Of a stretch of 32,000 bases of DNA, positions 985-22,397 are shown piece by piece (position 1 is the stretch's first letter; each line of letters begins with the position of its first letter). The notes beneath the pieces were generated by a model. The model was not told the origin of the DNA and searched no databases. It saw only the letters and a program-made list of their open reading frames with translations. Source of the DNA: Thermodesulfobacteriota bacterium. GTDB lineage: Bacteria; Desulfobacterota; WTBG01; JAGOGO01. Position numbers and translations under genes: made by a program. The DNA lies in assembly GCA_026625185.1 (NCBI GenBank), contig CP113000.1, positions 585,622-617,621 of the forward strand. The letters are read 5' to 3'.

Positions 985-985
985 A

Positions 986-1903: not shown

Positions 1904-1909
1904 ACGCAA

Positions 1910-6172: not shown

Positions 6173-6210
6173 CGCTTTTTTTCGTTATTATTTTTCTTTC
6201 GAAACTTTTT

Positions 6211-8058
6211 TTACTTAACACTTCCTGACAACATTATTTTTTTATCACAGGACGCTCGCCAGAAGCAATGCTTATTTTTCTTCGCATAAAGGGCTCCCCA
6301 GATATAAAGACAATATGAACGGTGCTTGGCAAAATGCCAGCATCGAAGCAAGTGAATCCGCGAGCGAACTTCATCGGGAAGTTTGGGGAAATCTTTTTCG
6401 AACATGAGAAGCTTTCCCTGATGGGTTGTCGATAGATAAAGGTTGAGTTCTTCAGGGGTTGTTATATTTTCTGGCATAAAACCGGTGTCAAACGAAATAA
6501 CCCCCATCGTCGTCTCATTCAGGCAATACCCCATAAATTCCGGAGAAATACCGCTCATGGTCTGGAGGTCTTTTGTAAGAGAATGACGATTTTTGATCCC
6601 ATCTCTCATTCGGTAATACTGTGAACCGCCACACAAAAAAAAGATAAAAGCAAGCCACGCGCAGACCAAAATTACTCGTGGTGAGCCTTTTTCCCAGAGA
6701 CGCATGCCATAAGTAGTTAATCCTATACCCATGAGCAAGAGTAACCCCCAGAGTATGAAAAACAGTGATGCAGAAGGTTTGGCCTGCAAAACAGTATGAA
6801 AAAACCGTGCAAAAAAGGGCTGGCCCCCGAAATAGGCGACCGGCATGGCCACCGAAGTGGCTAAAACAGACAAAGCTAAAATAATAAGCATAATGGCGTG
6901 CGTAGAGTGATCAATTTTTTGCGAGTTTTCACTTTTAGAGGTTGCCGCAACCCAGGCGCCAATCACGATGCCAAGCGGGGCAAAGAGCGGCAAAAGGTAA
7001 AGCATGCGCTTGGTTCCTGGAATACTCAGGAAAATAACGCCGATCGGAAATATTGAAGCCAGGCAAACCAATGCCGTGCCATTCCATTCCGACGGCCAGC
7101 GCTTGCGCCAGAGCCAGTGCCCAACCGCGGGAAGCGTAATCACCCACGGGATAATTTTGATCGGAAATTTCAGGTAGCGCCAGAAAGGATTCTCATGCCC
7201 CCCCCCGTAATGCTGTGCAGCCGAAGGGAAAATACGATTCACAACATTGGGGATGAAAAAGCCTTTCAAAAAAAGTTCCTTGCCTCCCCGAACATAAAGC
7301 ATGAACGGCCACCAAAGACACAAAGCCAGACAAACAAAAATCCCGGGAATATGCACCCACGAACGAAAAAAATTCCATCTCCGTGTTACCAGAATAGCCC
7401 CAATCAACGGCACCGCAACCAAACCCGGACCAACCGGACCTTTGACAAGGAAAGCAAGGCCGCCGGCAAGGTAGACTACAAAAATCCCCAGCGCGGAAGG
7501 TTCGTCCGGTTTTTTATCACCTAAATCTTTTTTGCCGAAGACGGCAACCACGAATCCCCAATAACCAAGCATGACAAAAAGAGCAAGCCAGGGATCAACC
7601 ACCGCCCTATGGAAGTGGCGATAAAAATCAGACATAGTGGCGGTCACAAGTGTTGCCATAAGGCCGGCAAACGGGTTCGCGACCCGCCTGGCTACATCAA
7701 ACACCAAAAGTAATGTCAAAACTGCGGCCAAGGCACTTGTGCTGCGCGCCACCCCATCGGAAACTCCAAAGAGGCGATACATTCCGGCCATGGCCCACCA
7801 GTAAAGCGGAGGCTTTTCCAGGAATGGTTTTCCTGCCAGGGTGGGAACGATCAAGTCGCCGCTTACTAACATCTCCCGCCCAATCTCAGCGTCGCGGGGT
7901 TCATCAGGCGTCCAGAGCGCATGATCAAAGACTCCGCTGAAAGAAATAAGGAGGCTTGCGGCAAACGCCACCAAAAATGCCTGCCGATTAGTCAAGATAG
8001 TTAACTTTTCAACAAGGCTACCGATCAGTTTTGAGAACCAACTATTCATTATAACCAT
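6211..8058 (-). CDS. GT-C fold, polyprenyl-phosphate-sugar-dependent glycosyltransferase (ArnT/PMT-like, GT39/GT83), paralog 2, 615 aa
   Basis: At least 10 predicted TM segments. The first-loop signature TPDEPRDAEIGREMLVSGDLIVPTLAGKPFLEKPPLYWW parallels the ArnT motif seen at 1..585. There is a C-terminal region of about 150 aa after the last TM. An alternative start is ATG 8049. Confidence 0.75.
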   Translation of the reverse strand: MVIMNSWFSKLIGSLVEKLTILTNRQAFLVAFAASLLISFSGVFDHALWTPDEPRDAEIGREMLVSGDLIVPTLAGKPFLEKPPLYWWAMAGMYRLFGVSDGVARSTSALAAVLTLLLVFDVARRVANPFAGLMATLVTATMSDFYRHFHRAVVDPWLALFVMLGYWGFVVAVFGKKDLGDKKPDEPSALGIFVVYLAGGLAFLVKGPVGPGLVAVPLIGAILVTRRWNFFRSWVHIPGIFVCLALCLWWPFMLYVRGGKELFLKGFFIPNVVNRIFPSAAQHYGGGHENPFWRYLKFPIKIIPWVITLPAVGHWLWRKRWPSEWNGTALVCLASIFPIGVIFLSIPGTKRMLYLLPLFAPLGIVIGAWVAATSKSENSQKIDHSTHAIMLIILALSVLATSVAMPVAYFGGQPFFARFFHTVLQAKPSASLFFILWGLLLLMGIGLTTYGMRLWEKGSPRVILVCAWLAFIFFLCGGSQYYRMRDGIKNRHSLTKDLQTMSGISPEFMGYCLNETTMGVISFDTGFMPENITTPEELNLYLSTTHQGKLLMFEKDFPKLPDEVRSRIHLLRCWHFAKHRSYCLYIWGALYAKKNKHCFWRASCDKKIMLSGSVK

Positions 8059-8130
8059 CGATTTTTTTTAAACAACTATAGCTAATTTGTTTCAAAGACT
8101 CTTAAAAGTATTATTAATAACTCAATGAAG

Positions 8131-8168
8131 ATTAACCTTGCATTAAATAAAAATTAATTTTTCTTAAG
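8131..8168 (-). promoter_or_regulatory. Candidate response-regulator operator, copy 1: four phased NTTAAK repeats
   Basis: The plus strand reads ATTAAC cttgc ATTAAA taaaa ATTAAT ttttc TTAAG, with TTAA cores spaced 11, 11 and 10 bp apart. It lies 73 nt upstream of ATG 8058. It matches 11112..11149 at 29 of 38 positions with identical repeat phasing. Confidence 0.5.
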
Positions 8169-8224
8169 AGATATCTACTGGGAAATGTTGCCTGTGGTGA
8201 AATGATGTTGGTTACGAATTCAAG

Positions 8225-8252
8225 AAAAAACCCCTGGAGTACCTTTACGGGG
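8225..8252 (-). terminator. Possible intrinsic terminator after the 566-aa GT-C gene
   Basis: The minus strand reads CCCCgtaaaggtactccaGGGG followed by TTTTTT. It lies about 58 nt after the stop at 8310. The stem is short (4 GC pairs plus 2 internal pairs), so this is tentative. Confidence 0.35.
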
Positions 8253-8309
8253 TAGAAATGTCACCGCTATCTTTCTTTTTTATCGAAGTCATGACTTCAA
8301 CCCGGCATC

Positions 8310-10010
8310 TTACTGCCTGGTAACGAAATGCACCAAAAGCAGAGGTGGGGCATCATTTTTCTCCGAGTCCTGATGTCTTAGAACCACCTCCAGTCTGAAG
8401 TGATCTTTTCCTAAAGCCGCTAGCCTTTCATAGATGTCTTGAGTGACAAGACAGTAACCCTGTTTTCTGGAAGCCAGTGCGGACACAACCGTCCGGGACT
8501 GTGGATTAAAATCCAACTTTACAAACTCGCGCCGCGCGTAGAAAGGAAGAGCGTCTTTGAGGAAAGTGAAATAAACCGGTTCATTTTCGGGCACAAGGCG
8601 GTTAATGCCCTGGGCAAAGCTGACAATGCTTCTTCGAGCGCTCAGCGGTGGTTCGAGCCAGCCGGAAATCCAGATTATACACAGCACTCCGGTTAAAACG
8701 AAAAGTTTAAAAGCCCTTTGAGGGCGCGAAAAAAGAAAACCGGAACCTATCAATGCTGGAATGGCAAGGCAGCCGCCCACGGCAAGAGTGTGCGTGAGAC
8801 TCGCTACTTCACGGGAATACATAGAGAAACCAACCCCGAAAGAGAAAAGCACACAGCCCAAAGAAAGCAACCCGGCCACAACCCAGCCAAAACGATCTAT
8901 CTTCCTGCTCTCAATTGTTTTCAGAAATTGCCGCAGCAGCACCGCCTCAATCACCCCCACGGCAGGAATCACCGGCAAGAGATGATGAATCGGCTGTTTG
9001 GCGCAAGCTGCAAAAAAAACGAAGGTTCCGGTCAGCCACAAGGAACAAAACCGCAGTCGTGACCAACTTTGCAATTTTCTTCCCCATACCGGCAAAAAAA
9101 GGGCCCCGACGCCTAAAATACTCCAGGGGTAGGTGAACCACGGCCAATTGCCCAAATGTTGGAAATAACCCCAACCATGATGCTCCTGGCTCGGAATCAC
9201 AGACAGTTTTACGTCAGCAATCAACTGTAGCAGAAAGTCTTTGTTCCATAACCAAAGCATTATCGGCCAGGCAAATGCGAACCCTATCACCATGAGCACT
9301 CCCCACCCCGGTCGCATCCGCACTCCCAACTGCCATTGATGCGACACCCATAGTTCCAGCACAATAGGTATGCTCACAATAACCAGCGCCAATGGCCCTT
9401 TGAACAAGCAGGCTAACGAAAGGCTGACATAAAAACCCCACCACGAAACTGACCACGGTCGGCCCTCCTTTTTCCAGACCAACCATAGCAGCAGAGCAAG
9501 GCCGGTAAAAAAGCTCAGCAATAAATCTTGGCTCGGCGAATGACATTGGGAAATAAAATACGGTGTGACGGCCAAAATCAAAGCGGCAATCCGTCCGGTT
9601 TCAGCGTCAAAAAGCCGGCGCGCTGTCGCCCAGGCCACAAAGATAATGCCCAAACCGGCAAGCGCGAACGGCAGTCGGAAGCCGAACTCATTTCGTCCCA
9701 GCAGCCGCATGCTTCCCACCGCGATCCAATCCGCAAACGGGGGTTTCAAAATCCGCGGTTTACCTTCTAATTGCGGCAACAGCCAATGGCCATGGTCGGT
9801 CACATCCGCCGCCGTGCCTGAGATCCGCCGCTCACGCAGATCCGTAATATCGCGCGACCCAAGAAAACAGAACACCGATACGATACAAACGACGCCGACC
9901 AACAGGTCCGCGTATTTTGACCAGAAAGGTGTGTCTTCTGGTTCCTTCCGGGAACATCGCAAAGCCTGCGATTGAGCGCAGCACGGTAGAAATCTAAAAA
10001 AAGTAGTCAA
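8310..10010 (-). CDS. GT-C fold, polyprenyl-phosphate-sugar-dependent glycosyltransferase, paralog 3, 566 aa
   Basis: Polytopic membrane protein. Its first-loop region DLRERRISGTAADVTDHGHWLLPQLEGKPRILKPPFADW is a divergent version of the ArnT/PMT motif, with the DE pair replaced by RE. The only start candidate at the ORF head is TTG 10010 and there is no upstream ATG, so the start is uncertain. Confidence 0.65.
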   Translation of the reverse strand: MTTFFRFLPCCAQSQALRCSRKEPEDTPFWSKYADLLVGVVCIVSVFCFLGSRDITDLRERRISGTAADVTDHGHWLLPQLEGKPRILKPPFADWIAVGSMRLLGRNEFGFRLPFALAGLGIIFVAWATARRLFDAETGRIAALILAVTPYFISQCHSPSQDLLLSFFTGLALLLWLVWKKEGRPWSVSWWGFYVSLSLACLFKGPLALVIVSIPIVLELWVSHQWQLGVRMRPGWGVLMVIGFAFAWPIMLWLWNKDFLLQLIADVKLSVIPSQEHHGWGYFQHLGNWPWFTYPWSILGVGALFLPVWGRKLQSWSRLRFCSLWLTGTFVFFAACAKQPIHHLLPVIPAVGVIEAVLLRQFLKTIESRKIDRFGWVVAGLLSLGCVLFSFGVGFSMYSREVASLTHTLAVGGCLAIPALIGSGFLFSRPQRAFKLFVLTGVLCIIWISGWLEPPLSARRSIVSFAQGINRLVPENEPVYFTFLKDALPFYARREFVKLDFNPQSRTVVSALASRKQGYCLVTQDIYERLAALGKDHFRLEVVLRHQDSEKNDAPPLLLVHFVTRQ

Positions 10011-10240
10011 TCAAAAAACTTTCATAAAAAGATTGACATTGATTAAAGGGGGTATTATCGAATAGCCTTCATAAAGGATTGTGCTCAGTTCTAATCTTTA
10101 TGGTTACCCCTAAACATTATCTTGTTCCTTTTTTTACCTCCCTTATCTAATATGCTTGAAATAATTATTAGAAATATCATAAACTTTACATTTAATAAAA
10201 CAAAAACTAACCAATTGTTTTTCGTGATGAGCCGTTATTA

Positions 10241-10316
10241 TCCAGTGACAAATACTTAAGCCAAGGCCGATTCCTCCCGATAGCCGGGAGCGGTATTTGT
10301 CCACCCGGAGAAGATA
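10241..10316 (-). pseudogene. Relic of a histidine-kinase 3-prime end (G2-box region only)
   Basis: Track ORF 10143..10331 translates to ..YLLRVDKYRSRLSGGIGLGLSICHWIITAH.., against FYRVDTSRSRLSGGVGLGLSICQWIVKAH in the intact kinase. My hand DNA alignment of 10241..10308 against 11255..11322 gives 56 of 68 identities. There is no HisKA or N/G1 part, and similarity stops after AH. Confidence 0.7.
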
Positions 10317-10317
10317 G

Positions 10318-11058
10318 TTATCTGCCATCAATTCTGAGTATTTTGGTTTTTTTGTCGATCATCCTCAAAGTGGCGTTCATCAATCCGCTAAGCAAAAACA
10401 GGATTAACCACAATTGATCCAGAACTAATCTACCATTGACAACTGAATCTCCCAGGATTTCTAAAAAAGTAAAAGATGCAATTATCGCCATAAACGTATC
10501 GTATTCCTTTCGAAGAGCAGTTCGAAAAGAAAATGCTAACTTTGGTGGTTTCCAATTTTTTAGCTTAGGTAAAAAGGTTGGCGTTTCGTGGGCCCATTTC
10601 AGATATTTTTCACTAAATGTTTTTTGCAAAAAGTTCTCCTCAGCAAAAATAATACGCTCATAATAAGTCCAGAAGACAAGCACAAACAGCGAGGTGACCC
10701 ACCACAATCGAAAAAAAAGCGATACTCCAAGGCCTATAACAAAATTCCCCAGATATAATGGGTGTTTGACGATAGAATATATTCCGGTAGTATTTAAAAA
10801 ATCTCCTTTCACCCGTTTAGTATTTCTTCCCGATGTTCCCTTGGGCACTGAGCCAACAGTAAAAAAACGAATTGCCAAGCCAAAAAGCGATATACTAACA
10901 CACCCAATTTCCCAGATATAATCCAGCCGATGACTTTGATAAGGATACTGGTAAACTTTAAAAGCCAGAAGAATTGGTGCGATCAGAAATAAAGGGAGAA
11001 AGCTTCTCCAGCGAAAAAGCCAGGTTCCAGAACTCTCCATATTTTCTCGCAGAGTCAT
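10318..11058 (-). CDS. ICMT/PEMT-family integral membrane methyltransferase (246 aa)
   Basis: The core TTGIYSIVKHPLYLGNF followed by YERIIFAEENFLQKTFSEKYLKWAHETPTFLP is the isoprenylcysteine carboxyl / phospholipid methyltransferase C-terminal signature. Multiple TM segments. GGAGG sits 9 nt upstream of ATG 11058; the track start 11061 is TTG. Confidence 0.8.
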   Translation of the reverse strand: MTLRENMESSGTWLFRWRSFLPLFLIAPILLAFKVYQYPYQSHRLDYIWEIGCVSISLFGLAIRFFTVGSVPKGTSGRNTKRVKGDFLNTTGIYSIVKHPLYLGNFVIGLGVSLFFRLWWVTSLFVLVFWTYYERIIFAEENFLQKTFSEKYLKWAHETPTFLPKLKNWKPPKLAFSFRTALRKEYDTFMAIIASFTFLEILGDSVVNGRLVLDQLWLILFLLSGLMNATLRMIDKKTKILRIDGR

Positions 11059-11111
11059 CAATGTATTCCTCCTATTTTTAGAATCTAATTTTAAATTATA
11101 ATTGGAAGAAC

Positions 11112-11149
11112 ATTAACACAGCGTTAATTTAGGATTAATTTTTATTAAG
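11112..11149 (-). promoter_or_regulatory. Candidate response-regulator operator, copy 2: four phased NTTAAK repeats
   Basis: The plus strand reads ATTAAC acagc GTTAAT ttagg ATTAAT tttta TTAAG, with the same 11/11/10 phasing as 8131..8168. It lies 54 nt upstream of ATG 11058 and 14 nt downstream of the kinase stop. Confidence 0.5.
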
Positions 11150-11162
11150 AAGAAAACGATAT

Positions 11163-12587
11163 TCAAGAGAGTGTGGCGGGAAGAATAACGGTAAAGGTGG
11201 TGCCTTGCTGAGGCGTACTTTTTACGTCAATGGTTCCCTGGTGGGCTTTCACAATCCATTGACAGATACTCAATCCAAGACCTACTCCGCCTGATAGACG
11301 GGAGCGGGATGTGTCCACCCGGTAAAATCGGTCGAATATATGGTGTAAATCATTGGTAGGTATTCCTATGCCTGTGTCTTTTATGACAACTGTTGCCTGG
11401 CATTTTCCCGGTTGTACTGTAAGACCAATATTCCCCCCATCAGGGGTATATTTTATGGCATTATCAATGAGGTTGCTGAAAAGCTGTTTCAGCTTTATGC
11501 GGTCGCCATTTATCAGTACCTCCTCCAAAGCCGAAAAGGTAAAACTGATTTTTTTCTGCATTGCCACAACATTGAAGGCCTCATAGAGTTCTTTAAGCAG
11601 TTCGGAAAAATTTAGATTTTCAATCTTGAGGCTTGCCTTGCCTTCGTCTGCCTGGGAGAGAATGAGGAGATCATTAACGAGCTTGGTCAAAAAATCAAGC
11701 CGTTCGAGATTATTGGCCAGGGCCTCTTGATACTCTTCTGAAGACCGTTTTCGGGAAAGAAAAACTTCAGTCTCACCTTTTAGAGCGGCAAGCGGAGTGC
11801 GCAACTCATGAGCGGCATCAGCAGTAAACCGGGTGAGTTTTTGAAAGGATTCTTCCAGACGTTCCATCATCTGATTGATGGTCATGGCCAGTCTGTCCAG
11901 ATCATCGTTACTTCCCTGCAAGGCCAGCCTTTCGCTCAGATTGCTGGCTGTTATTCGTTTGGTTGTTTCCGTAATTTTATCAATCGGGCGCAAAGATTTC
12001 CGGGATAAAAACCACCCTCCGATGGATCCGAAGATAAAGGCCAGAAAAAACGCCGTCAGAAGGTGTTCTCGAAAGTTTTCAATGGTTCTCTCCATGGGCA
12101 GAAGATAGGTTGCTATCTGAACAATATATTTTAATTCTCCGTTTTCCCGATAGAAATGAGTGCAGATGCGGAAAGGACTTTCCCCCTGAAGAACACTCAA
12201 TGTTGTATGAACAGGTTTTCGATACCTATTGTGATCAGGGAAAACTTTGGGAAAAACAAGTCCCGGTAACGTTAAAGAGGAAAAAAAATCCCTTTCATTT
12301 TGATCGAGCAATCGAAAAGCGATGGGGAAATATTTGCGGTTGGAGGCAACTTTCTCATATTCTCTTAATTCATCGTTTAAAGTTTCAGGATTTTCAAGTA
12401 TCACATTAATAATTTCCTTGGTCTCATCCACCAGCATCCGGTCAATCCCTTTAAGAAGATTACGGCGGAAGCGATAGTCTAAAAATCCAAAGATAAGGAT
12501 TATCATGGTCAAAAACGTTACCGTGTACCATAAGGCCATCCTCACATCGAGTCGTTTGTAAAATTTAATTTTTCCCTTTGAAGACAT
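11163..12587 (-). CDS. Sensor histidine kinase (2 TM, periplasmic domain of about 135 aa, HAMP, HisKA, HATPase_c)
   Basis: H-box FTADAAHELRTPLAAL, N-box LFSNLIDNAIKYTP, G1 VIKDTGIGIP, and G2 GGVGLGLSICQWIV. The overall style is that of the CusS/PmrB-type kinases that partner OmpR-family regulators. ATG 12587 has AAGGTG 6 nt upstream and overlaps the regulator gene by 23 nt. The track start 12596 is GTG. Confidence 0.9.
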   Translation of the reverse strand: MSSKGKIKFYKRLDVRMALWYTVTFLTMIILIFGFLDYRFRRNLLKGIDRMLVDETKEIINVILENPETLNDELREYEKVASNRKYFPIAFRLLDQNERDFFSSLTLPGLVFPKVFPDHNRYRKPVHTTLSVLQGESPFRICTHFYRENGELKYIVQIATYLLPMERTIENFREHLLTAFFLAFIFGSIGGWFLSRKSLRPIDKITETTKRITASNLSERLALQGSNDDLDRLAMTINQMMERLEESFQKLTRFTADAAHELRTPLAALKGETEVFLSRKRSSEEYQEALANNLERLDFLTKLVNDLLILSQADEGKASLKIENLNFSELLKELYEAFNVVAMQKKISFTFSALEEVLINGDRIKLKQLFSNLIDNAIKYTPDGGNIGLTVQPGKCQATVVIKDTGIGIPTNDLHHIFDRFYRVDTSRSRLSGGVGLGLSICQWIVKAHQGTIDVKSTPQQGTTFTVILPATLS

Positions 12588-13239
12588 ATCCGACACCTTT
12601 AACCGTATGAATTAGTTTTGGGGAGAAGTCTTTATCAATTTTAGCCCGGAGATGATTGATGTGGACATCAATAATATTGGTCATGGTGTCAAAATTATAA
12701 TTCCAGATGTGCTCGGAAAGCATGGTGCGGGTCAGAACCTGGCCGGGATTTCTCATAAAATATTCGAGTAGAGCGTATTCTTTTGGGGTAAGGTCAATAA
12801 GAGCATCCCCCCGCCTCACCTCTCGGCTGATTTGATTCAACGTTAAATCAGCATACTGCAAAAGGGGAGATACAACCTCTTTACCCCGACGAAGTATAGC
12901 CCTTATGCGCGCCAACAGCTCATGAAAAGAAAACGGCTTAACAATATAATCGTCAGCTCCTAAATTTAATCCATTCACTATGCTTCCTTCGGAGTCTTTG
13001 GCGGTAAGAAATATGACTGGGGTAGTATTTCCCCTTTCTCTTAAATGAAGAAGAATTTTATCCCCGCTCAAAACCGGGAGCATAATGTCCAGGATAATGA
13101 GGTCATAATTTTCTTGGGTTGCCAAATGAAGACCATCTTCGCCATTTTCCGCAATGTCCAAACTAAAAGAGTTTTCTTTTAACCCTTTTTCAATAAAACG
13201 GGCCACATTTTTATCGTCTTCCACCAACAAAATTCTCAT
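12565..13239 (-). CDS. OmpR/PhoB-family response regulator (receiver plus winged-helix domain)
   Basis: MRILLVEDD, ILDIMLP with the phospho-acceptor Asp, and LTAKD. The C-terminus LTPKEYALLEYFMRNPGQVLTRTMLSEHIWNYNFDTMTNIIDVHINHLRAKID..KLIHTVKGVGYVF is a canonical winged helix. Confidence 0.95.
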   Translation of the reverse strand: MRILLVEDDKNVARFIEKGLKENSFSLDIAENGEDGLHLATQENYDLIILDIMLPVLSGDKILLHLRERGNTTPVIFLTAKDSEGSIVNGLNLGADDYIVKPFSFHELLARIRAILRRGKEVVSPLLQYADLTLNQISREVRRGDALIDLTPKEYALLEYFMRNPGQVLTRTMLSEHIWNYNFDTMTNIIDVHINHLRAKIDKDFSPKLIHTVKGVGYVFKGKN

Positions 13240-13357: not shown

Positions 13358-14317
13358 CTAACGGAAAGCGCCACGCCGGTAAAGCCGCCAGAAAAGTACC
13401 ACCACTCCCACCACCGGAACCCGCCTCAAACGATGATCCATTTGAATCCTAACACCCGAATGCCGTTCTATCTTCCAAAGAACATAATCCAAGCCACCCT
13501 GGAAGGTATATAAGCTTTTAACAAGCTGAAGCAGTGAGAGTATCTTACCCTGGATACGGCGCAAACCCCACATAAGCCGGCTAAAAACGCGCGTCGGAGC
13601 CGGAATACCCGCCCGATAGCGATATACTTGATTGCCGCTTATAGCCTCCACAGAATAAGAAACTGAATTCATGGCAGCCCGAGTTAGTTCTTCGTAATGA
13701 CGTGGAGCAGAGTCAAACAGATCGGTAAGCTTATCACGTCGTTCTGCTCTCAGTTCAGTCCCATAGCTGAGCAAAAGTCCCGTGCACCACAATTCTCGGC
13801 TGGTAAATTGCTGTCGTGGCATGAGGGGCAGCACCCGAGTGATAAAGGTAAGCAGGGCTTGGGCCATTGTGGTGTATATCTGCTCTGCCACATGGTTGTT
13901 ACGCGCGTAGACAAGACCCATCGGCTGAGCCAGCCGACTCCACAGATAAGAGCGAAACCAGCGTGAGGCCCCTTGCTGAAAGTCCCTGAAACTAAAGACG
14001 GTATATTTACAGCGTCTCACGCCTTCTTCGAAAGGGATCTCAAAATAGAATACATTGGGTGGCAAAAGCCTATTCAAAAAAGCGTAGGAGTGTCTGTGGT
14101 AGGCGTGGCGATACCTGTCTACCACAAGGTATAAATCGACGATTCCGTTGCTGTCGTCACCGGTGCGGAAACAGGATCCATACAAAAGAATGGCCTGGGT
14201 GGCGTCGCGGTGGCGCCCAAGGATCTCTTCGGTGAGCGCTTTTATAGCGGGCGGGGACTTACGCAAGGTTTTTTGGCGGATGATGGTAATAAGTTCTGCT
14301 GGCGGGCTGATAATCAT
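13358..14317 (-). CDS. Tam41/Mmp37-like nucleotidyltransferase (candidate lipid-phosphate cytidylyltransferase), 319 aa
   Basis: LLYGSCFRTG..GIVDLYLVVD gives the polymerase-beta-type GS...D-x-D pattern. It is followed by PPNVFYFEI...CKYTVFS..DF, then YLWSRLAQPMGLVY, then LLLSYGTELRAERRDKL. This mirrors my recollection of the Tam41 family profile (YGS.., vyfn.., KYGV, YLAGRLQKPV, LSYxGDxR). The C-terminal tail is hydrophobic and basic. The call is from memory of the profile, not from a search. Confidence 0.5.
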   Translation of the reverse strand: MIISPPAELITIIRQKTLRKSPPAIKALTEEILGRHRDATQAILLYGSCFRTGDDSNGIVDLYLVVDRYRHAYHRHSYAFLNRLLPPNVFYFEIPFEEGVRRCKYTVFSFRDFQQGASRWFRSYLWSRLAQPMGLVYARNNHVAEQIYTTMAQALLTFITRVLPLMPRQQFTSRELWCTGLLLSYGTELRAERRDKLTDLFDSAPRHYEELTRAAMNSVSYSVEAISGNQVYRYRAGIPAPTRVFSRLMWGLRRIQGKILSLLQLVKSLYTFQGGLDYVLWKIERHSGVRIQMDHRLRRVPVVGVVVLFWRLYRRGAFR

Positions 14318-15342
14318 AATTTTAAAAAGGAGGCCTTTCCACCTTCCGTTATGATGAGTTCGGTTGCCTGATTACCCAGGTCATAAAGCTCCCCGTCGAG
14401 GGTGAAGCCGCCGGTAAGTGTGAGCCGTACTTCCCGAGTTTTTCGACTGAAGTATCCATTCTCCGGTGAGCAGAAACGACCTTTTTGACCGCGCAGCAAG
14501 GCCGGTAACGTCCGCAGCAAATACCGTGGCTGGTTGCCGAGTGCGGTGTAGTAAAATACTCCGGTTTCCCCACTCCAGTAAGGTCGTATCCCAAGGAACA
14601 GGCGTTCAAGGGTGCTGATGAGAATTAAGAGGAACTCACGTTCCTCCGAAGGCTCACCGTTCAAGCTAACAGTGGCCCGGGTCGGGGAAAGCAACTTTTT
14701 GTCCATGCGCGCTGCGGCTAACAGAAATCGGCCTAACGTCACACCTGCGGCCAGTTCGCCGCTCACGCCCTTGCTGTGCACCCGATCAAGGCAGAACCGA
14801 ATTCCCTGGCAGATGCCGGCTGCTCCCAAAAACATCCCGTAGAGAGGTTTCTGATCGGGTGTTCCTTCCACTTTCAATAAAGGCCGTTGTACAACAGCCG
14901 CGCTACCGTAGCCGGTGCTGATCCAGGTCAAAAGCCTGCTCAGCGCTTTTCGCGCAGAACCGGATAACCCAACATCCCTGGCAATCATGCTCGCCGTGCC
15001 TGATCGCAAGAGCGCGAGCAAGGGCAGTGGCCCAGGTGATGGCTGTCCGAAAAACTCCGTGAGAACAGCGTGGATGGTGCCGTCACCTCCGTTTACCGCC
15101 ACAACGTCCACTTTGCTCCGAGCGAATTCAGCCAGAGCTGATCCTACTTCTGAAGGTGTGATCGCCTCACGATGGAATACTTGGGGTCGCCTAGCCAGGA
15201 TTTTACGGATGATAGGTAGGCCTTTCCGGTTGCCACCGCTCAGGGGATTACTGATCAAACCGAGGCTGAGCGTTTTGCCGGGCTTCAAAATGGAGGACTC
15301 AGGCAATTGATCGGTTTGAAAAATTTTGGGATCGTCACTCAT
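14314..15342 (-). CDS. DAGK-catalytic-domain lipid kinase (YegS/LCB5/sphingosine-ceramide kinase-like)
   Basis: ISNPLSGGNRKG plus VAVNGGDGTIHAV form the diacylglycerol-kinase catalytic-domain signature. Start is taken at ATG 15342 (MSDDPKIF), 13 nt after the upstream stop; the track start 15420 would overlap the upstream gene by 65 nt. The stop overlaps the next ATG as ATGA at 14314-14317. Confidence 0.8.
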   Translation of the reverse strand: MSDDPKIFQTDQLPESSILKPGKTLSLGLISNPLSGGNRKGLPIIRKILARRPQVFHREAITPSEVGSALAEFARSKVDVVAVNGGDGTIHAVLTEFFGQPSPGPLPLLALLRSGTASMIARDVGLSGSARKALSRLLTWISTGYGSAAVVQRPLLKVEGTPDQKPLYGMFLGAAGICQGIRFCLDRVHSKGVSGELAAGVTLGRFLLAAARMDKKLLSPTRATVSLNGEPSEEREFLLILISTLERLFLGIRPYWSGETGVFYYTALGNQPRYLLRTLPALLRGQKGRFCSPENGYFSRKTREVRLTLTGGFTLDGELYDLGNQATELIITEGGKASFLKL

Positions 15343-15355
15343 CGGTGTCCGGTTA

Positions 15356-16576
15356 TTACTTTGCCGGTCGTTGGGTGAACAGCTTCGCTGCCAATGATTT
15401 ATCATAGGCAGCCTGGTCAATTTCCAACATCCAGGTGCGCAACGGGCCGGAGGTTATCCGGGTAAAAGCGGCCATGCCCAGTCGAATCATCAGAAAAAGA
15501 CTGGTTACCGCGGTCCAGATGGCTACTGCCAATAAACCCAGATCACTGTGCCCGGTAAGGGCGCCGGTCGTCAGCAGGATGAGGTTGGGGTTGCGTCTCG
15601 CGGTAATGAGCCGGAAATACGAGTCCACCGGACGCCAGATGAATATTACAAAAGTTCCCAAAAAATTCTTGAAAACAAGTTCTACCAGACGCCCCACGAT
15701 ATAGCCTGCGATGATCACCCATAATACCGTATCCAAAGATATATCCGGCGATCCCACCTGGGAAGCGCCCAGACCAAGTCCCCAGGCTACGTACCAAACT
15801 GGCGGGTGCAGGAGGTCAATCAGATGATCAAAAAGATGCCCGAACCGAGTAGACGTTATGGTTACGCGGGCCAATTTTCCGTCAACCGTGTCCAGGAAGG
15901 TCATCACCCACCCGGCCAGCAATCCCCAACCGAACTGGCCGCGGGCAAACAACACTGCAGCCAGGATGACCAGCACGAAGCCTATCAAAGTAACCTGGTT
16001 AGGGCTCATGCCGAGATTCGCGCACACTTTTGTGCACCACTGAGCCGGACGCGGCCATACCCATTTGGTCACCAGGTCGGTCACCCCCTTGTAGGACCCG
16101 GCAAAAAGGCGTTGTTCCAGCTCACCACGGTTTATTTCGGTAATGGGTAGAACAAAAGGCGGATCTGACTTTTTGAGGCGCCTATGATAGGACGAAGAGA
16201 GGGTCTCCGGGATTTCGGTTCTAATGCCGGGCAAGGATGTCTCAGGGGATCGGCTGCTCAGGAGTTCCCGCGCTTGCAATGCGCAGCTCGATCGCACCTG
16301 GGCAGCGACCGGTACTCGTGCCCCGTCCGGACCGGCCTGGAGCACCACGTCGGTCATCTCAATCAGACTGTTGATCACCCGATCGTCATAAAGGTAATCA
16401 CCGCGGATTAATAATACTGAACTTTGCGGTGGAATGGATTCAAGATTTTCTAAAAAATCGACTTCGCCCGCGTGCCTGAGCGCTCGCTCCAAGCGCTGGC
16501 GGGAGGACAATCCCCAAAGTGTGATCGGGCTATCACAAAAAATATAGGCGTAGGTCGGCATCAATGAACCTTTCAT
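15356..16576 (-). CDS. CDP-alcohol phosphatidyltransferase family protein with an extra cytoplasmic N-terminal domain of about 150 aa
   Basis: The full CDP-alcohol motif is present: DTVDGKLAR-VTITSTRF-GHLFDHLID, that is D-x2-DG-x2-AR-x8-G-x3-D-x3-D. About 6 TM segments follow. The N-terminal domain is soluble. ATG 16561 (AAAGG 7 nt upstream) is an alternative to ATG 16576. Confidence 0.9.
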   Translation of the reverse strand: MKGSLMPTYAYIFCDSPITLWGLSSRQRLERALRHAGEVDFLENLESIPPQSSVLLIRGDYLYDDRVINSLIEMTDVVLQAGPDGARVPVAAQVRSSCALQARELLSSRSPETSLPGIRTEIPETLSSSYHRRLKKSDPPFVLPITEINRGELEQRLFAGSYKGVTDLVTKWVWPRPAQWCTKVCANLGMSPNQVTLIGFVLVILAAVLFARGQFGWGLLAGWVMTFLDTVDGKLARVTITSTRFGHLFDHLIDLLHPPVWYVAWGLGLGASQVGSPDISLDTVLWVIIAGYIVGRLVELVFKNFLGTFVIFIWRPVDSYFRLITARRNPNLILLTTGALTGHSDLGLLAVAIWTAVTSLFLMIRLGMAAFTRITSGPLRTWMLEIDQAAYDKSLAAKLFTQRPAK

Positions 16577-16873
16577 AAAAAATTGCTGTTAAAACCCTCC
16601 TTGGCCACGGGCCGGCGCAAAAAAAGTCTGGAATTAATCAAAGATAATATTATATAATAAAAATATAAAACTTGTAAAGTCCTATCGGTTAAAAACCCGT
16701 GGAGGTTAAAATCAAAGGTATTCTGGAATGTTATAAGGCTTTCCGATCCAAAAAAATCTCTTTTTTAGATATACTCTGAATGATGGTACCGGAAAATATT
16801 TTATGCACCAATTATAGTGAGCAACATAAATAAAGAGGCATTCTTCTTTTGCCATGCCGTAGCCCTCGCTATT

Positions 16874-17082: not shown

Positions 17083-18063
17083 GTGAACAGGTTTAAGGTG
17101 GAAAAAAAGCTTCCGTCTAACTACGAGGAGGTGTTTAGGCTTATTCATCTTTCCGATCCCCACTTGTTTTCAATAACCAATGTGCGGTTACGGGAGCTGC
17201 TGAATAAAAGAGTTTATGCCTATTTTTCCTGGCGCCTGCACCGGCAAGCTGAGCATTGTGGTGAAGTTCTCGCCGCTTTGCTAAAAGACATGCAATCCCT
17301 CAAACCCGATCATATCGTTCTCACCGGGGATTTGACACACATGGGCCTGCCGAGCGAGTTTCGTCAGGCGCAAGAAATGCTTCAGTCCCTGGGGCCGCCC
17401 TCAAAGGTAATGGTAATACCTGGCAATCATGACACCTATGTTGCCACAGCGTGGGAGCGCACGTTTCGCCTCTGGTCAGATTACCTGGCCTCCGATGCAG
17501 ACCATTGTTTCCCGGAAGCAGCAAAGGCACGCAATATTGTTTTTCCCACCTTACGAGTCCGCGGCCCCATTGCCCTTATTGGTGTTTCCACTGCCTGCCC
17601 CACTATACCGTTTCTCGCTACCGGCAGCATCGGCAAAGTGCAGATGAAGAAGCTTGAAAATATTCTTGACGAGACACGGCGTAGACACCTTTTGAGAGTG
17701 GTGCTGATCCACCACCCACCGGTTCCTGGGGCGGTTTCCTGGCGGAAACGACTTACGGACCAGGCAGCATTCCAAGCGCTTCTGGCGCGCCATGGCGCTG
17801 AACTCATTTTGCATGGTCATACCCATCGCACTTATTTAGGACATCTTGAGACGCCTGGGGGCAGAGTTTTTTCAATCGGTGTCCCGTCAGCGTCATCCCT
17901 CGGCCGCACAGCACATCGACGGGCTCGATACCATGTCTTTCGTCTGATACGAACTGAGAGTGGACTGGAGATGCTGCTTACAGTGAGAGTTTACTCGCCA
18001 ACAAAACAACGATTCATCGATGAAGACGAACAGCAGGTGCCGTTGCCTCAACCGACCGGCTGA
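17083..18063 (+). CDS. Calcineurin-like metallophosphoesterase (326 aa)
   Basis: The metal-binding motifs appear in order: HLSDPHL, LTGDLTHMG, IPGNHD, LIHHPP, LHGHTH. The start is GTG 17083 or GTG 17098, with no ATG nearby. Confidence 0.85.
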   Translation: MNRFKVEKKLPSNYEEVFRLIHLSDPHLFSITNVRLRELLNKRVYAYFSWRLHRQAEHCGEVLAALLKDMQSLKPDHIVLTGDLTHMGLPSEFRQAQEMLQSLGPPSKVMVIPGNHDTYVATAWERTFRLWSDYLASDADHCFPEAAKARNIVFPTLRVRGPIALIGVSTACPTIPFLATGSIGKVQMKKLENILDETRRRHLLRVVLIHHPPVPGAVSWRKRLTDQAAFQALLARHGAELILHGHTHRTYLGHLETPGGRVFSIGVPSASSLGRTAHRRARYHVFRLIRTESGLEMLLTVRVYSPTKQRFIDEDEQQVPLPQPTG

Positions 18064-18263: not shown

Positions 18264-19343
18264 TCATGCCGGGCTATGGGCGTGGGACAGGAACCCAAGA
18301 GCGAGACAGAAGATTACCGCAACCGGTGCCAGTGCGACGAGCGCCAGGTTTAAACCAAAAATCAGTCCGAGGTTCCCAAGAATCTGATTGAGAAAATACA
18401 CCCCAATACCGACGATTCCCCCGATCATTATCCTGAATCCAGCAGTATGCTTGCGGGTTGATCCAAAGACGAAGGTAAGGGAGAGCAAAACCAGGGCAGC
18501 CGTGGACAGAGGGGTGCTTACCTTTTGCCAGAATAATAACTCGTATTGATCGGAATTTTGCCCGGTCTCCCGCAGTAACTGAATATACTGGTAAAGGTCA
18601 GAGGGCGATTGAATTGCCGGCGGAACTTCCTGAATTGTCATCTGCTCTGCACTGAGTACCGATTCACGGGTGAGACTGGGGAGGCGCTTGGTGGTCACCC
18701 CCTGGGGAGTAATGACCTTCTGCTCGACATCGGTGAGCACCCATTGGTTGTTTTTGGTAACAACAGCTTTTCGAGCGTGGGTGAATACGCGGAGACGCCT
18801 CTCTTGGTCCCATTCGAAAATGTCAACGTTTTCCGGAAGTACGCCGGCGTGGATTTTGCTGACGTGGATAAAGACGGATCCGTTGCGCGCCCAAAAACCG
18901 TTGGTGGTAAACGTGATATCAGCAGCGTTGCTGAGCGCAATCAAACGCCCTGTCCGTGCCTGCTGCTCCATGGGCGGCACAATAAACTCTGCCAGGATTC
19001 CCGATGCCAGCATGGGAAGCGTGGCGGCCGCAAGGACTGCCCAGCAGATTCGACGCACCGATATGCCGCCGGCTTGCATGGCGACGAGTTCATTTTTGTC
19101 CGCCAGCAGTCCAAGGGCTATGACTCCCCCCAGGAGGCAGCTTTGCGGTATCAGGTCCAGTAGTCGGCCCGGCAGTGTGAGAAGCACATAAGATACGGCA
19201 TCCGTAAGCTGATAGTGTCCTTTTCCCACATCATCCAGTTCAAGGATAAACTCAAAAAAACTGAACAGAAATCCCAAGATGGACAGTACCAGCAGAAAAC
19301 ATCGAGTGAAACTTTTGCCGATATAGAGATCAATTATTTTCAT
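18264..19343 (-). CDS. lptG: LptG, LPS export ABC permease (YjgP/YjgQ family)
   Basis: IDLYIGKSF at the N-terminus, ELVAMQAGGIS, and NGFWARNGSVFIHVSKI parallel E. coli LptG (LDRYIGK, ELVVMQASGF, GLWAKDGNNFVYIERV). It directly follows lptF. ATG 19343 is preferred over TTG 19367. Confidence 0.85.
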   Translation of the reverse strand: MKIIDLYIGKSFTRCFLLVLSILGFLFSFFEFILELDDVGKGHYQLTDAVSYVLLTLPGRLLDLIPQSCLLGGVIALGLLADKNELVAMQAGGISVRRICWAVLAAATLPMLASGILAEFIVPPMEQQARTGRLIALSNAADITFTTNGFWARNGSVFIHVSKIHAGVLPENVDIFEWDQERRLRVFTHARKAVVTKNNQWVLTDVEQKVITPQGVTTKRLPSLTRESVLSAEQMTIQEVPPAIQSPSDLYQYIQLLRETGQNSDQYELLFWQKVSTPLSTAALVLLSLTFVFGSTRKHTAGFRIMIGGIVGIGVYFLNQILGNLGLIFGLNLALVALAPVAVIFCLALGFLSHAHSPA

Positions 19344-19406
19344 CACCAAGCACGCAATATAAGACAATAGAAAAATTTTTCATAAACGGTGGTAACAACA
19401 ATATGA

Positions 19407-20501
19407 TTACCGACATCGTGGGTGAGACCAGCACTGCTGAGACGGATTAAGCAGAAGGATGAGCAGGACCACGGCCAGCAATCCTTGTACCCACCAAATA
19501 CCCAACCATGGGGGAATCTGGCTTTGTTGCACCCCGAGTTTGGCCACGGTGACGATGCTGTAATAAAATCCGTAAATGATTATACCAATGGGAAGATTGG
19601 CATGTTTGCCCTTGCGTGTTTCTATCCGGCTCAGAGGCACACCGAGGAGCGCCAGAAGGAGCGTGGAAAGCGGAGATAACATCCGCCACTGTAGCTCAGC
19701 GATGTCTGAAGGGTTTTTAGAACGCGCTAGGTAAAAAGTTGAGGCGGCCTTTGTTTTGTATTCCAAGGGGGTAATTTCTTTGGGCCATAAAGAAACCGTG
19801 TACTGCGCCGATTCCATAACGCGCCCTTTTCCTTCTCCGGTGCGAGGCAATTCATAACGACAGGCGTTCAGAAAGAAGATGACTTGTCTGCCGGTGGCCG
19901 GGTCAAGACGCTGATAGGCCTCCTTTGCGTAGACGACTTCCAGCAGATCATTTCCCTCTTTCGGATCTTTTTCCATGAAGACCCCCTCCGCTCTCTGCCT
20001 TGTTTGGTCAATTTTCTCAATAAAGATGAACCGATCCCCTTCGCCGATTTTATAAAACCTGCCTGCTTTCAATCTGGTGACGTCAAACTCGGCCTTTGCT
20101 TTGGCTTTCAACCAGAAAAATTGTTCGTAGGCCCATGGCCGCACGGCGAGCGATAAGCTCCCCCCCAGGAGCGCTACCGGTAAGGACAAAACAAAAACGA
20201 CTGCCAGCACCCGACAAAGAGACACGCCGGAAGCAAAGAGCGCCGTCATTTCATTATCATTATAGAGTCGCCCTATACCGACTATGACCGAAAGGTAAAG
20301 GCTGGTGGGAAGAACTACCTCCAGGGCGATCAATACCTTGAGCAGAATAATGAATATGATTGTCTTTATGGACATAAGGCCGAAGGTTGCATCTGCAAGG
20401 TAGCGATTTGTGCTGTGTGCTGCGAAGATTATCACCAAAACCGCAACCATGCTTATCAGCGGCTTGATTATTTCGGCTATGAGGTAACGATTTAAGATCA
20501 A
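19407..20501 (-). CDS. lptF: LptF, LPS export ABC permease (YjgP/YjgQ family)
   Basis: ILNRYLIAEIIKP at the N-terminus, NEMTALFASGVS, a periplasmic beta-jellyroll-length insert, and 6 TM segments. The only start that preserves the conserved N-terminus is TTG 20501. Confidence 0.85.
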   Translation of the reverse strand: MILNRYLIAEIIKPLISMVAVLVIIFAAHSTNRYLADATFGLMSIKTIIFIILLKVLIALEVVLPTSLYLSVIVGIGRLYNDNEMTALFASGVSLCRVLAVVFVLSLPVALLGGSLSLAVRPWAYEQFFWLKAKAKAEFDVTRLKAGRFYKIGEGDRFIFIEKIDQTRQRAEGVFMEKDPKEGNDLLEVVYAKEAYQRLDPATGRQVIFFLNACRYELPRTGEGKGRVMESAQYTVSLWPKEITPLEYKTKAASTFYLARSKNPSDIAELQWRMLSPLSTLLLALLGVPLSRIETRKGKHANLPIGIIIYGFYYSIVTVAKLGVQQSQIPPWLGIWWVQGLLAVVLLILLLNPSQQCWSHPRCR

Positions 20502-21218: not shown

Positions 21219-22397
21219 GTGAAGCAACTTATCCAACCTCCGGCCGCACAAAACGCCCGGACCGATCATACCCTCCGGATCGCACGAGTTGAGGGACGGA
21301 GTGGTTTTCGTCAATTCATCCGCCTTCCTTGGTCTCTATATGGCGATGACCCGATGTGGGTCCCGCCGCTTCTCATTGAGCGGCGCCGGCACCTTTCCCC
21401 CCGCAATCCTTTTTTCGCGCACGCCCAATACTGTTCCTGGCTAGCGTACCGTGGATTGCGGCCCGTGGGCCGTATCAGCGCCCAAGTTGACGAACTTCAT
21501 ATTCAGCACCATCGAGACGCCACCGGTTTTTTCGGAATGATAGAGGCTGAAAACGACGCCACGACGTTCCGGGCCCTCACCGATACCGCTGAGCAGTGGC
21601 TCCGCGGCAAGGGGATGCGCCGCATTATCGGCCCACTCAATCTTTCCCTAAACCAGGAAGGTGGGTTGCTGGTAGAAGGGTTCGACACCCCCCCCTCAAT
21701 CATGATGGGCCATGCGCACCGTTATTATGGTCAACGGATCGAGGAGCAAGGCTATCGCAAGGAAAAGGAACTGCTTGCATACCTTGTCAATATTGAATGT
21801 AATTGGCCTCCCTTGGTACGAAAAATTGCAGCAAAAGCGCCCCAAGACGTGCTTCTCCGACCGTTGTGCATGTCCCGTTTCACCGAAGAATTGGAGACTC
21901 TGCAGGGTATTTTCAATGACGCATGGTCCCAAAACTGGGGTTTTATCCCGTTCACCAAGGCGGAATTCCAACATATGGGGCAGGATATTAAACACCTGGT
22001 GGATAAGGAATTCGTGCAGATCGCAGAAGTAAACGGAGACCCCGCTGGGATGATCGTGGTGCTCCCAAACATCAATGAAGTTATCCGGGACCTCAACGGG
22101 CGGCTTCTCCCCTTCGGCTGGATGAAATTGCTCTGGCGTCTCAAGGTGAGATACCCGACTTCTGGGCGGGTCCCCCTTATGGGAGTGTGCCGGCGCTATC
22201 AGGAGAGCATGCTCGGGTCTGCGCTCGCCTTCATGCTTATAGATGCGGCACGCGTCCCCGCCCTCAGGCGCGGTATGCGGGAAGTTGAGATGTCCTGGAT
22301 ACTTGAAGACAATATGAGGATACGGAACATTATCGAATCCATCGGTGGCAAAGTATACAAACGCTACCGAATATATGGAAAAGAACTTTATGAATGA
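21219..22397 (+). CDS. GNAT-fold N-acyltransferase, candidate bacterial ceramide synthase (bCerS-like), 392 aa
   Basis: F-QFIRLPWSLYGDDPMWVPPLLIERR, NPFF-HA...WLAYR...VGRISAQVD, and the C-terminus SWILEDNMRIRNIIESIGGKVYKRYRIYGKEL. I recognise this roughly 390-aa architecture as a family usually annotated as N-acetyltransferase. The ceramide synthase role is inferred from context. GTG start. Confidence 0.5.
   Translation: MKQLIQPPAAQNARTDHTLRIARVEGRSGFRQFIRLPWSLYGDDPMWVPPLLIERRRHLSPRNPFFAHAQYCSWLAYRGLRPVGRISAQVDELHIQHHRDATGFFGMIEAENDATTFRALTDTAEQWLRGKGMRRIIGPLNLSLNQEGGLLVEGFDTPPSIMMGHAHRYYGQRIEEQGYRKEKELLAYLVNIECNWPPLVRKIAAKAPQDVLLRPLCMSRFTEELETLQGIFNDAWSQNWGFIPFTKAEFQHMGQDIKHLVDKEFVQIAEVNGDPAGMIVVLPNINEVIRDLNGRLLPFGWMKLLWRLKVRYPTSGRVPLMGVCRRYQESMLGSALAFMLIDAARVPALRRGMREVEMSWILEDNMRIRNIIESIGGKVYKRYRIYGKELYE

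Follow-up and report, generated by a model that had tools for sequence, protein, structure and literature searches.

Which reaction does a Tam41-like protein carry out in a bacterial lipid operon? The question is raised by a 32,000-nucleotide stretch of a Thermodesulfobacteriota genome (GenBank assembly GCA_026625185.1, contig CP113000.1, positions 585,622 to 617,621 of the forward strand), which is called the window below. An earlier note, made from the letters alone, claimed that positions 13358-14317 of the window encode a bacterial Tam41/Mmp37-like protein as the last gene of a lipid operon, and took it for a dedicated CDP-lipid synthase. The open reading frame (ORF) is there in the ORF listing and its translation. 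It starts with ATG, encodes 319 amino acids and contains the quoted peptide blocks exactly. It lies on the minus strand, which the note had left unstated. We argue that the protein is the Thermodesulfobacteriota orthologue of CpgC from the sphingolipid pathway of Caulobacter crescentus and that it works as a CTP:ceramide-1-phosphate cytidylyltransferase. We hold this reading as a whole with slightly better than even confidence.

The ORF is a genuine gene. A Thermodesulfobacteriota metagenome-assembled genome (MAG) has the identical protein on record, and a word-indexed search finds 2030 homologues at E<=1e-3. After clustering at 50% there are 1452 family representatives. When the search is seeded with an alphaproteobacterial profile at least 7820 clusters are matched, and among the 120 of these matches listed there is no Caulobacter-labelled sequence. 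At least 588 species genomes encode relatives. The sources annotate most homologues as 'hypothetical protein', and a few JGI entries are labelled 'Mitochondrial matrix Mmp37' or 'Phosphatidate cytidylyltransferase, mitochondrial'. The 319-aa protein is covered by no NCBIfam model.

The Tam41 fold of the 319-aa protein

The only Pfam family that matches the protein is PF09139, the Tam41 family. The profile check that the earlier note had proposed does give a match (E=3.7e-5, residues 91-220 only), yet its 23.7 bits lie below the gathering cut-off of 24. The family as a whole is borderline too. PF09139 matches 25 of the 28 close homologues, and 31 of the 128 diverse members, at E<=0.01, with a best value of E=5.7e-13 and no rival family. 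Pfam thus recognises about a quarter of the diverse members, which explains both an earlier statement that there are no conserved domains and the many 'hypothetical protein' labels.

Profiles bring the relationship out. Compared with all PDB sequences, the single protein matches Tam41 alone, and weakly. A 28-sequence profile finds Tam41 at E=3.8e-4, and a 128-sequence family profile finds the Tam41 structure 6ig2 at E=1.4e-6. The alignment of the larger profile pairs VFY.E with VYYNT, KYAV.S with KYGVTS, YLW.RFAQP with YLAGRFQKP, and Y..ELR.E with YLGDIR..E. The N-terminal pairing in the same alignment, YGSC...LLDLYV with YGSG...MIDFIF, is weaker and alone falls below significance. A search with a 120-aa fragment of Schizosaccharomyces pombe Tam41 for full Tam41 sequences returned one 92-aa fragment only.

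An AlphaFold2 (AF2) model built from the alignment has a pLDDT of 83.6 and a pTM of 0.84, and the five best Foldseek matches of this model in the PDB are all Tam41. The S. pombe structures 6ig4 and 6ig2 come at E=6.8e-10 to 4.5e-9 with TM-scores (TM) of 0.52-0.60 over about 280 columns (for 6ig4 E=6.8e-10, TM 0.52/0.59 and 281 columns), and the Firmicutes Tam41 7ecd comes at E=4.7e-8. The next family is the ANT(4') aminoglycoside nucleotidyltransferases at E=2e-4 and a TM of about 0.3. The two-domain fold of the model, a nucleotidyltransferase domain followed by a winged-helix domain, superposes on the Tam41 crystal structures. The 319-aa protein is a distant branch of the Tam41/Mmp37 fold. 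On this the earlier note was right: family profile and fold agree with it, its structure check puts Tam41 first, and no unrelated nucleotidyltransferase family matches better.

Eleven positions are invariant in the 128 sequences, which have a mean column identity of 38%: G47, D61, P87, K104, R128, Q131, E188, R190, E192, Y278 and K282. The blocks that the earlier note quoted as following the Tam41 order (NVFYFEI, KYTVFS, YLWSRLAQP and LSYGTELRAE) do align in that order with VYYNTHVEV, IKYGVTS, YLAGRFQKP and LSYLGDIRM of S. pombe Tam41, and they hold the family-invariant K104, R128, Q131, E188, R190 and E192. The note's 'GS...DxD' start has to be corrected. The nucleotidyltransferase motif is Y46-G47-S48...D61-L62-Y63, in which Y46-G47-S48 and D61 are invariant or nearly so, and there is no DxD. 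D67, six residues past D61, is not invariant. Tam41 likewise has a single-Asp motif (YGSG...IDFIF). The single-Asp site fits Tam41, which according to a structural survey retains only one acidic residue out of the canonical three (PMC11646218). The predicted architecture combines a nucleotidyltransferase domain that has one catalytic Asp with a helical/winged-helix domain and a very basic amphipathic C-terminus.

This C-terminus had been proposed as a membrane anchor. The last 80 residues contain 16 K/R against 3 D/E, a net charge of +13, and residues ~237-262 would form a strongly amphipathic helix with a hydrophobic moment of up to 0.66. No segment is of transmembrane-grade hydrophobicity, and the hydrophobic run VPVVGVVVLFW has just 11 residues. 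The C-terminus of Tam41 is a positively charged amphipathic helix that binds the membrane peripherally (PMC7018664), and these properties would fit the same role here. Charge and amphipathy agree with the anchor idea, but the conservation of the tail, where R285 and H286 are also nearly invariant, goes beyond a plain anchor.

A kinase-coupled gene in a sphingolipid locus

The earlier note had placed the gene beside a diacylglycerol-kinase-type kinase and a CDP-alcohol transferase, and the Pfam domains of both neighbours agree (Table 1). The kinase and the CpgC-type gene are translationally coupled, since the TGA that stops the kinase and the ATG that starts the CpgC-type gene overlap as ATGA (TTATGATT). 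Related loci were compared (L001-L083; 80 genome loci enter the adjacency count, and 63 are assessable for the CDP-alcohol transferase). A kinase stands directly upstream of the family member in 77-78 of 80-83 loci (77/80 genome loci), and in 33 loci the tblastn matches of the two genes abut with zero gap. There is even a natural fusion. P0164, a metagenomic protein of 662 aa, has DAGK_cat at residues 19-127 and the CpgC-type region at 351-660, which makes it a convenient single polypeptide for biochemistry. No conserved gene lies downstream of the CpgC-type gene in the 80 related loci, so it ends the conserved module. In this sense it is the last gene of a lipid operon, as the note had it. 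In the window the next gene on the same strand, 118 nt further on, is a response regulator, and no terminator-like site lies between the two.

The setting is not a glycerophospholipid locus. The ceramide synthesis genes in the window make it a sphingolipid locus. Going by domains, similarity and gene order, the window holds putative members of every gene class of the Caulobacter CPG2 (ceramide-diphosphoglycerate) locus, and the cpgA-cpgB-cpgC order matches. That locus is CC_1152-CC_1168 (PMC9393093, PMC11324152, PMC12275187, 2026 LptF2/G2 preprint). CC_1152 is CpgD, a CTP:phosphoglycerate cytidylyltransferase, and CC_1153 is a MobA/CofC-like nucleotidyltransferase (PMC9393093, PMC11324152, PMC12275187). 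CC_1154 is the bacterial ceramide synthase (bCerS), CC_1155 and CC_1156 are LptG2 and LptF2, and CC_1158 is a phosphoesterase (PMC9393093, PMC11324152, PMC12275187, 2026 preprint; for the role of CC_1158, PMC11324152). CC_1159 is the CDP-alcohol transferase CpgA, CC_1160 the ceramide kinase CpgB and CC_1161 (CCNA_01219) is CpgC, while CC_1162-1165 are spt, acp, cerR and aas (PMC9393093, PMC11324152, PMC12275187). The ceramide kinase activity of CpgB, the counterpart of the kinase here, has been shown biochemically.

Caulobacter genetics gives the position of CpgC in the pathway. A cpgC deletion keeps ceramide phosphate and loses both ceramide phosphoglycerate (CPG) and CPG2 (PMC9393093), which argues that CpgC acts on ceramide-1-phosphate. 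The evidence that CpgC is required between ceramide-1-phosphate and CPG is genetic and comes from Caulobacter only (PMC9393093, PMC11324152). Homologues of CC_1161 from alpha- to delta-proteobacteria have been reported with the Tam41 InterPro domain IPR015222, and the description of the deletion implies that CC_1161 has about 293 aa (both PMC11324152 supplement). This fits the alphaproteobacterial members of our family, which have about 300 aa against 319 in the window. One of them, from a Geminicoccaceae alphaproteobacterium, has 38% identity over 310 residues (E=9e-59) and stands in the published arrangement, LptF-LptG-kinase-[family member] and then spt-acp-cerR-aas. From sequence and gene order we are highly confident that the 319-aa protein is orthologous to CpgC.

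Across the related loci the association with sphingolipids recurs. Ceramide synthesis genes lie near the family member in at least 20 of the 83 loci, within short flanks, and among others in an alphaproteobacterial locus (L081) and in a Pseudomonas plasmid locus (L083). The CDP-alcohol transferase is more erratic. It adjoins the kinase in 34 of the 63 assessable loci and is absent from 29. A CpgD-like gene occurs in 9 of the loci that have the transferase and in 0/29 without it, though the flanks of the latter extend further upstream. The phosphoesterase is present in 56/63, and both types of locus come with the LptF/G pair and the CofC-like nucleotidyltransferase. Since the transferase and CpgD vary together and independently of the kinase-CpgC pair, the locus splits into a core (kinase, CpgC, phosphoesterase, CofC-like enzyme and LptF/G) and an accessory pair (CpgA and CpgD).

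This split agrees with the Caulobacter literature, where the role of CpgA and CpgD is confined to the second step, from CPG to CPG2 (PMC9393093 among others). CpgA is dispensable for CPG (PMC9393093), and its proposed substrate is the CDP-glycerate that CpgD makes (Caulobacter literature). Zymomonas, which lacks a CC_1159 gene, is predicted to stop at CPG (Caulobacter literature). The earlier note had reasoned from the adjacent CDP-alcohol transferase to a CDP-lipid donor for it. The core/accessory split undercuts the inference that this enzyme consumes the Tam41-like product, and with CpgA dispensable in Caulobacter and the transferase so often missing, the argument is weak. The neighbouring transferase probably does not consume the CpgC-type product.

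The reaction and its alternatives

Where the chemistry of a Tam41-fold enzyme is known, CMP goes from CTP to a lipid phosphomonoester (PMC7018664, PMC11646218), and the residues shared with these enzymes are the invariant ones of the CpgC-type family. Substrate, nucleotide and product are inferred, and the simplest reaction that fits is ceramide-1-phosphate + CTP -> CDP-ceramide + pyrophosphate. The translational coupling and the kinase fusion fit the hand-over of a membrane-bound phosphomonoester. An 'NDP-activated ceramide' has already been floated by Olea-Ozuna et al. (PMC11324152). The CDP-lipid chemistry of the earlier note is kept here as the best reading. A stray CDP-diacylglycerol (CDP-DAG) synthase is dropped, and the genomic context points to the substrate that the note had named as an alternative, ceramide-1-phosphate.

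The pathway would run as follows. A CpgB-type kinase would phosphorylate ceramide on the cytoplasmic side of the inner membrane. In the CpgC-type enzyme the lipid phosphate would then attack the alpha-phosphate of CTP to give CDP-ceramide and pyrophosphate, as Tam41 makes CDP-DAG from phosphatidic acid. The activated ceramide phosphate would be passed to glycerate or phosphoglycerate, which would give CPG. CpgA and CpgD, both with candidates in the window, would add a second phosphoglycerate from CDP-glycerate, and the LptF/G-like permeases would export the lipid. It is an even question whether the whole family makes CDP-ceramide, so that anionic phosphosphingolipids arise by a Kennedy-type route with a CDP-activated lipid, unlike the headgroup transfer by the sphingolipid synthases of eukaryotes. 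One can imagine as a weaker extension that mitochondrial Tam41 descended from such an alphaproteobacterial sphingolipid enzyme.

Several points weigh against CDP-ceramide synthesis by a CpgC orthologue. We know of no biochemical assay for any member of the family. The term 'CDP-ceramide' was not found in the literature searched. Identity to Tam41 is only about 15% (15-17%), and the protein misses the PF09139 gathering score by 0.3 bit. The orthology with CpgC is argued from locus structure, an intermediate alphaproteobacterial member and a published domain annotation. The C-terminal 80 residues are highly conserved, with Y278 and K282 invariant and a WKIERHSG motif, and this hints at an extra function that is absent from the Tam41 model. 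CpgD papers of 2025 and 2026 (the latest from May 2026) call the mechanism of CpgC unidentified. The weak point is that a CDP-ceramide route needs a glycerate transferase, and the candidate, CpgA, is dispensable in Caulobacter and absent in 29/63 loci.

Because this transferase is missing, we keep substantial weight on an enzyme that does more than activation, or something else, even if we think it rather unlikely. The protein would still be a CpgC orthologue but would release no free CDP-ceramide. It would either carry out both half-reactions itself, first the activation of the lipid and then the transfer of ceramide phosphate to glycerate, much as nucleotidyltransferase-fold enzymes of the LicD/fukutin type employ CDP-alcohols, or join glycerate to ceramide-1-phosphate through another activated donor. 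Zik et al. first proposed that CpgC adds glycerate to ceramide phosphate (PMC9393093). There is no dedicated transferase known for the CPG step, and the kinase-CpgC pair does without an adjacent one in the 29 loci above. The invariant Y278 and K282 and the nearly invariant R285 and H286 also exceed what an anchor needs. However, it is energetically unfavourable to esterify a phosphomonoester directly with glycerate, as the Caulobacter authors note (PMC11324152). The Tam41 enzymes, as the sole structural relatives with known chemistry, do simple CMP transfer, and a bifunctional enzyme of this type would be without precedent.

The default of the earlier note, a true CDP-DAG synthase, fares worse and we consider it improbable. 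It would use phosphatidic acid from a diacylglycerol kinase and serve as a salvage pathway alongside CdsA. Fold and motifs of the Tam41 kind would suit such an enzyme, the neighbour does have a DAGK_cat domain, and some family members are labelled 'phosphatidate cytidylyltransferase' by their source. For a Firmicutes Tam41 the formation of CDP-DAG has been reported (Kimura 2022, summarised in PMC11646218). Such a role is hard to reconcile with a gene that lies within ceramide synthesis loci, in the window and in at least 20/83 related ones. The Caulobacter counterpart of the kinase is a ceramide kinase, and the phenotype of the cpgC mutant is specific to sphingolipids. The borderline score against the Tam41 Pfam model also argues for a separate branch.

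It is very improbable that the protein lacks catalysis and serves as a partner that tethers the kinase to the membrane or regulates it there. The tight coupling, the occasional fusion and the very basic, presumably membrane-binding C-terminus would all make sense in that case. The 11 invariant residues would not, as they include G47 and D61 and the residues K104, R128, E188 and R190 that are common to Tam41. In Caulobacter the kinase does not need CpgC, since ceramide phosphate is still made in the cpgC mutant (PMC9393093). We discount almost entirely an unrelated nucleotidyltransferase of the aminoglycoside/lincosamide-resistance, antitoxin (MntA-like) or defence (HalB-like) type, for although the N-terminal 50 residues weakly match kanamycin nucleotidyltransferase, NCBIfam HalB comes at E ~0.1-0.5, and Foldseek finds ANT(4') and also HalB (4e-3), these scores fall short of those of Tam41 by five to six orders of magnitude and rule out the identity, only the core fold is shared, and the context is lipid synthesis with no toxin, resistance or defence genes.

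CPG2, an anionic sphingolipid, enables Caulobacter to live without lipid A and is the target of colistin in that organism. To our knowledge the CpgC step is the sole part of the CPG2 pathway without a known mechanism. Fold, active-site pattern, kinase coupling and independence from CpgA and CpgD together yield a testable reaction for it, from ceramide-1-phosphate and CTP to CDP-ceramide. The CpgC counterpart is a member of a known family and not a new kind of system. A bacterial Tam41 is no novelty either: a Firmicutes Tam41 has been crystallised (PDB 7ecd), and the Tam41 domain of CpgC homologues has been published (PMC11324152 supplement). Desulfobacterota have earlier been discussed only as potential carriers of Spt. 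What is added is structural support, from the model, for the Tam41 fold of the CpgC-type family, together with its single-Asp motif, the kinase fusion and translational coupling, and the division of the locus into core and accessory parts. The complete CPG2-type locus is also extended to Thermodesulfobacteriota, Nitrospirales, Myxococcota and a plasmid. This will not surprise a specialist in bacterial sphingolipids, yet it points at an open biochemical step that can be tested. We consider it of moderate interest overall.

Neighbouring genes and comparison with known systems

Table 1. Genes and sites of the window, beginning with the CpgC-type gene and its operon
Feature	Position	Strand	Evidence or remark
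CpgC-type Tam41-fold nucleotidyltransferase	13358-14317	minus	PF09139, profile vs 6ig2, AF2/Foldseek, kinase adjacency
CpgB-type lipid (putative ceramide) kinase, DAGK_cat	14314-15420	minus	PF00781 E=5e-11
CpgA-type CDP-alcohol phosphotransferase, AF2299-like cytoplasmic N-domain	15356-16576	minus	PF01066 E=4e-11
Promoter-like site TTTACA-18-TATAAT (11/12)	16649-16678	minus	consensus scan only; ~70 nt upstream of first operon start
Metallophosphoesterase, divergent, CC_1158 counterpart	17083-18063	plus	PF00149 E=6e-18
LptG-like permease, candidate sphingolipid-specific LptG2	18264-19367	minus	PF03739 E=3e-66, synteny
LptF-like permease, candidate LptF2	19407-20501	minus	PF03739 E=1e-60, synteny
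Putative bacterial ceramide synthase (bCerS position), 392 aa	21219-22397	plus	by position
MobA/CofC-like nucleotidyltransferase, CC_1153 counterpart	22446-23348	plus	PF12804 E=6.5e-14; seen in 25 related loci
CpgD-like cytidylyltransferase, CC_1152 position	23454-24278	minus	PF00483 + PF12804
Acyl-ACP synthetase (aas)	25252-27039	plus	PF00501 E=4e-54; gene order as in L081 and Caulobacter
CerR-type ceramide reductase, NAD-dependent epimerase/dehydratase	27228-28169	plus	PF01370 E=9e-28, synteny
Acyl carrier protein, 83 aa	28212-28463	plus	ORF listing; tblastn match to PP-binding gene of L081
Serine palmitoyltransferase-type alpha-oxoamine synthase (spt)	28463-29662	plus	PF00155 E=1.5e-57
MsbA-like ABC exporter	29669-31468	plus	PF00005 + PF00664; starts 7 nt after spt
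OmpR-type response regulator	12565-13239	minus	
Histidine kinase	11163-12596	minus	
LmtA-like lipid A 1-phosphate methyltransferase	10318-11061	minus	TIGR04571 223 bits, below cut-off 325
Two ArnT-like PMT_2 transferases	8310-10010, 6211-8058	minus	
ArnB-, ArnC-, ArnA-, ArnD-, ArnE/F-like genes	5021-6172, 4065-5024, 1910-3943, 986-1909, 598-1116	minus	

Within the operon the start of the kinase is uncertain. It is either the TTG at 15420, which gives a 65-nt overlap with the upstream gene, or the ATG at 15342. The kinase has a GGDG motif and weak matches to the YegS/BmrU/DgkB structures. The best solved relatives of the CDP-alcohol transferase are the AF2299 fusion and PIP synthases. No Pfam family matches its residues 1-180, and in this N-domain the segment LWGLSSRQRLERALRHAG aligns with LLGLTLRERIEKTLQRAG of the Archaeoglobus AF2299 N-domain.

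Among the ceramide genes, the putative bCerS protein has no Pfam match and is 52% identical (E=2e-137) to the protein of the gene at the bCerS position of L081. A minus-strand ORF of 246 aa (21696-22436), also without a Pfam match, overlaps its gene almost wholly. This ORF is probably spurious, since the plus-strand frame is the conserved one. The CpgD-like protein has 52% identity to a 'phosphocholine cytidylyltransferase family protein' of L083, and the spt protein has 54-66% identity to the products of spt-position genes in related loci. The MsbA-like exporter adjoins spt in two further loci (L070 and L073) and is a candidate flippase for the sphingolipid. An LptG/LptF-like pair stands beside the kinase-CpgC module in 40-46 of 80-83 loci, across Desulfobacterota, Nitrospirales, Myxococcota and Gammaproteobacteria. 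Like LptF2/G2 of Caulobacter (2026 preprint), such pairs may be exporters specific to sphingolipids and not lipopolysaccharide permeases.

The L083 locus lies on the IncP plasmid pPNP1 of Pseudomonas sp. JS425 (NZ_CP073662.1, 63832-82626), beside an IS5 transposase, and is nearly whole. Its genes are aas, cerR, a nucleotidyltransferase, LptF, LptG, the kinase, the CpgC-like 'hypothetical protein', the phosphoesterase, an ELM1-like glycosyltransferase, the CDP-alcohol transferase and a CpgD-like gene. Family members are found on Roseomonas, Diaphorobacter and Qipengyuania plasmids too. Since a sphingolipid operon has been reported in Escherichia coli strain UTI89, the kinase-CpgC DNA of the Pseudomonas plasmid was compared with E. 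coli genomes by blastn, and there was no match. The whole pathway appears common in uncultured Desulfobacterota, Nitrospirales, Myxococcota and Gammaproteobacteria, besides its occurrence on an IncP plasmid.

Directly downstream of the sphingolipid operon the window holds a complete block for the modification of lipid A charge (598-13239, minus strand). A lipid A role was considered because of the LptF/G, phosphoesterase, LpxL-like and Arn neighbours and was dropped, as the ceramide genes and the Caulobacter literature account for the same neighbours. The Arn, LmtA and two-component genes may share control of outer-membrane charge with the sphingolipid locus. We suggest this because the two are adjacent and CPG2 is the colistin target in Caulobacter.

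The protein can also be compared with known systems. ANT(4') is the second-best structural family and shares the nucleotidyltransferase core, but at the scores given above, and with another second domain, other substrates and another context. CdsA shares only the proposed chemistry, in which a lipid phosphomonoester receives CMP from CTP. It is a polytopic, housekeeping membrane protein of unrelated fold, and no similarity to it in sequence or structure was found.

Tam41/TAMM41 (6ig2, 6ig4) and the Firmicutes Tam41 (7ecd) are alike in overall fold, in the single-Asp YGS...D motif, in the KY, R..(Q/K)P and Y..(E/D).R motifs in the same order, and in the basic amphipathic C-terminus. The CpgC-type family differs in its low identity and borderline Pfam score. 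The WKIERHSG signature lies in its conserved C-terminus, and the crystallised Tam41 constructs compared end 74 residues short. Its gene is paired with a DAGK_cat kinase within sphingolipid loci, and its likely substrate is ceramide-1-phosphate, not phosphatidic acid.

Caulobacter CpgC is the closest parallel. It too is the last gene of cpgA-cpgB-cpgC, has a similar size and the reported Tam41/Mmp37 domain, and shares its locus with spt, acp, cerR, aas, bCerS, LptF/G paralogues, the phosphoesterase and nucleotidyltransferases of the CC_1153 and CpgD types. In the window, spt lies 14 kb off on the opposite side of the locus and not directly downstream. The published comparative analysis of the CPG locus was restricted to alpha-, beta- and gamma-proteobacteria, whereas the host here is a Thermodesulfobacteriota MAG.

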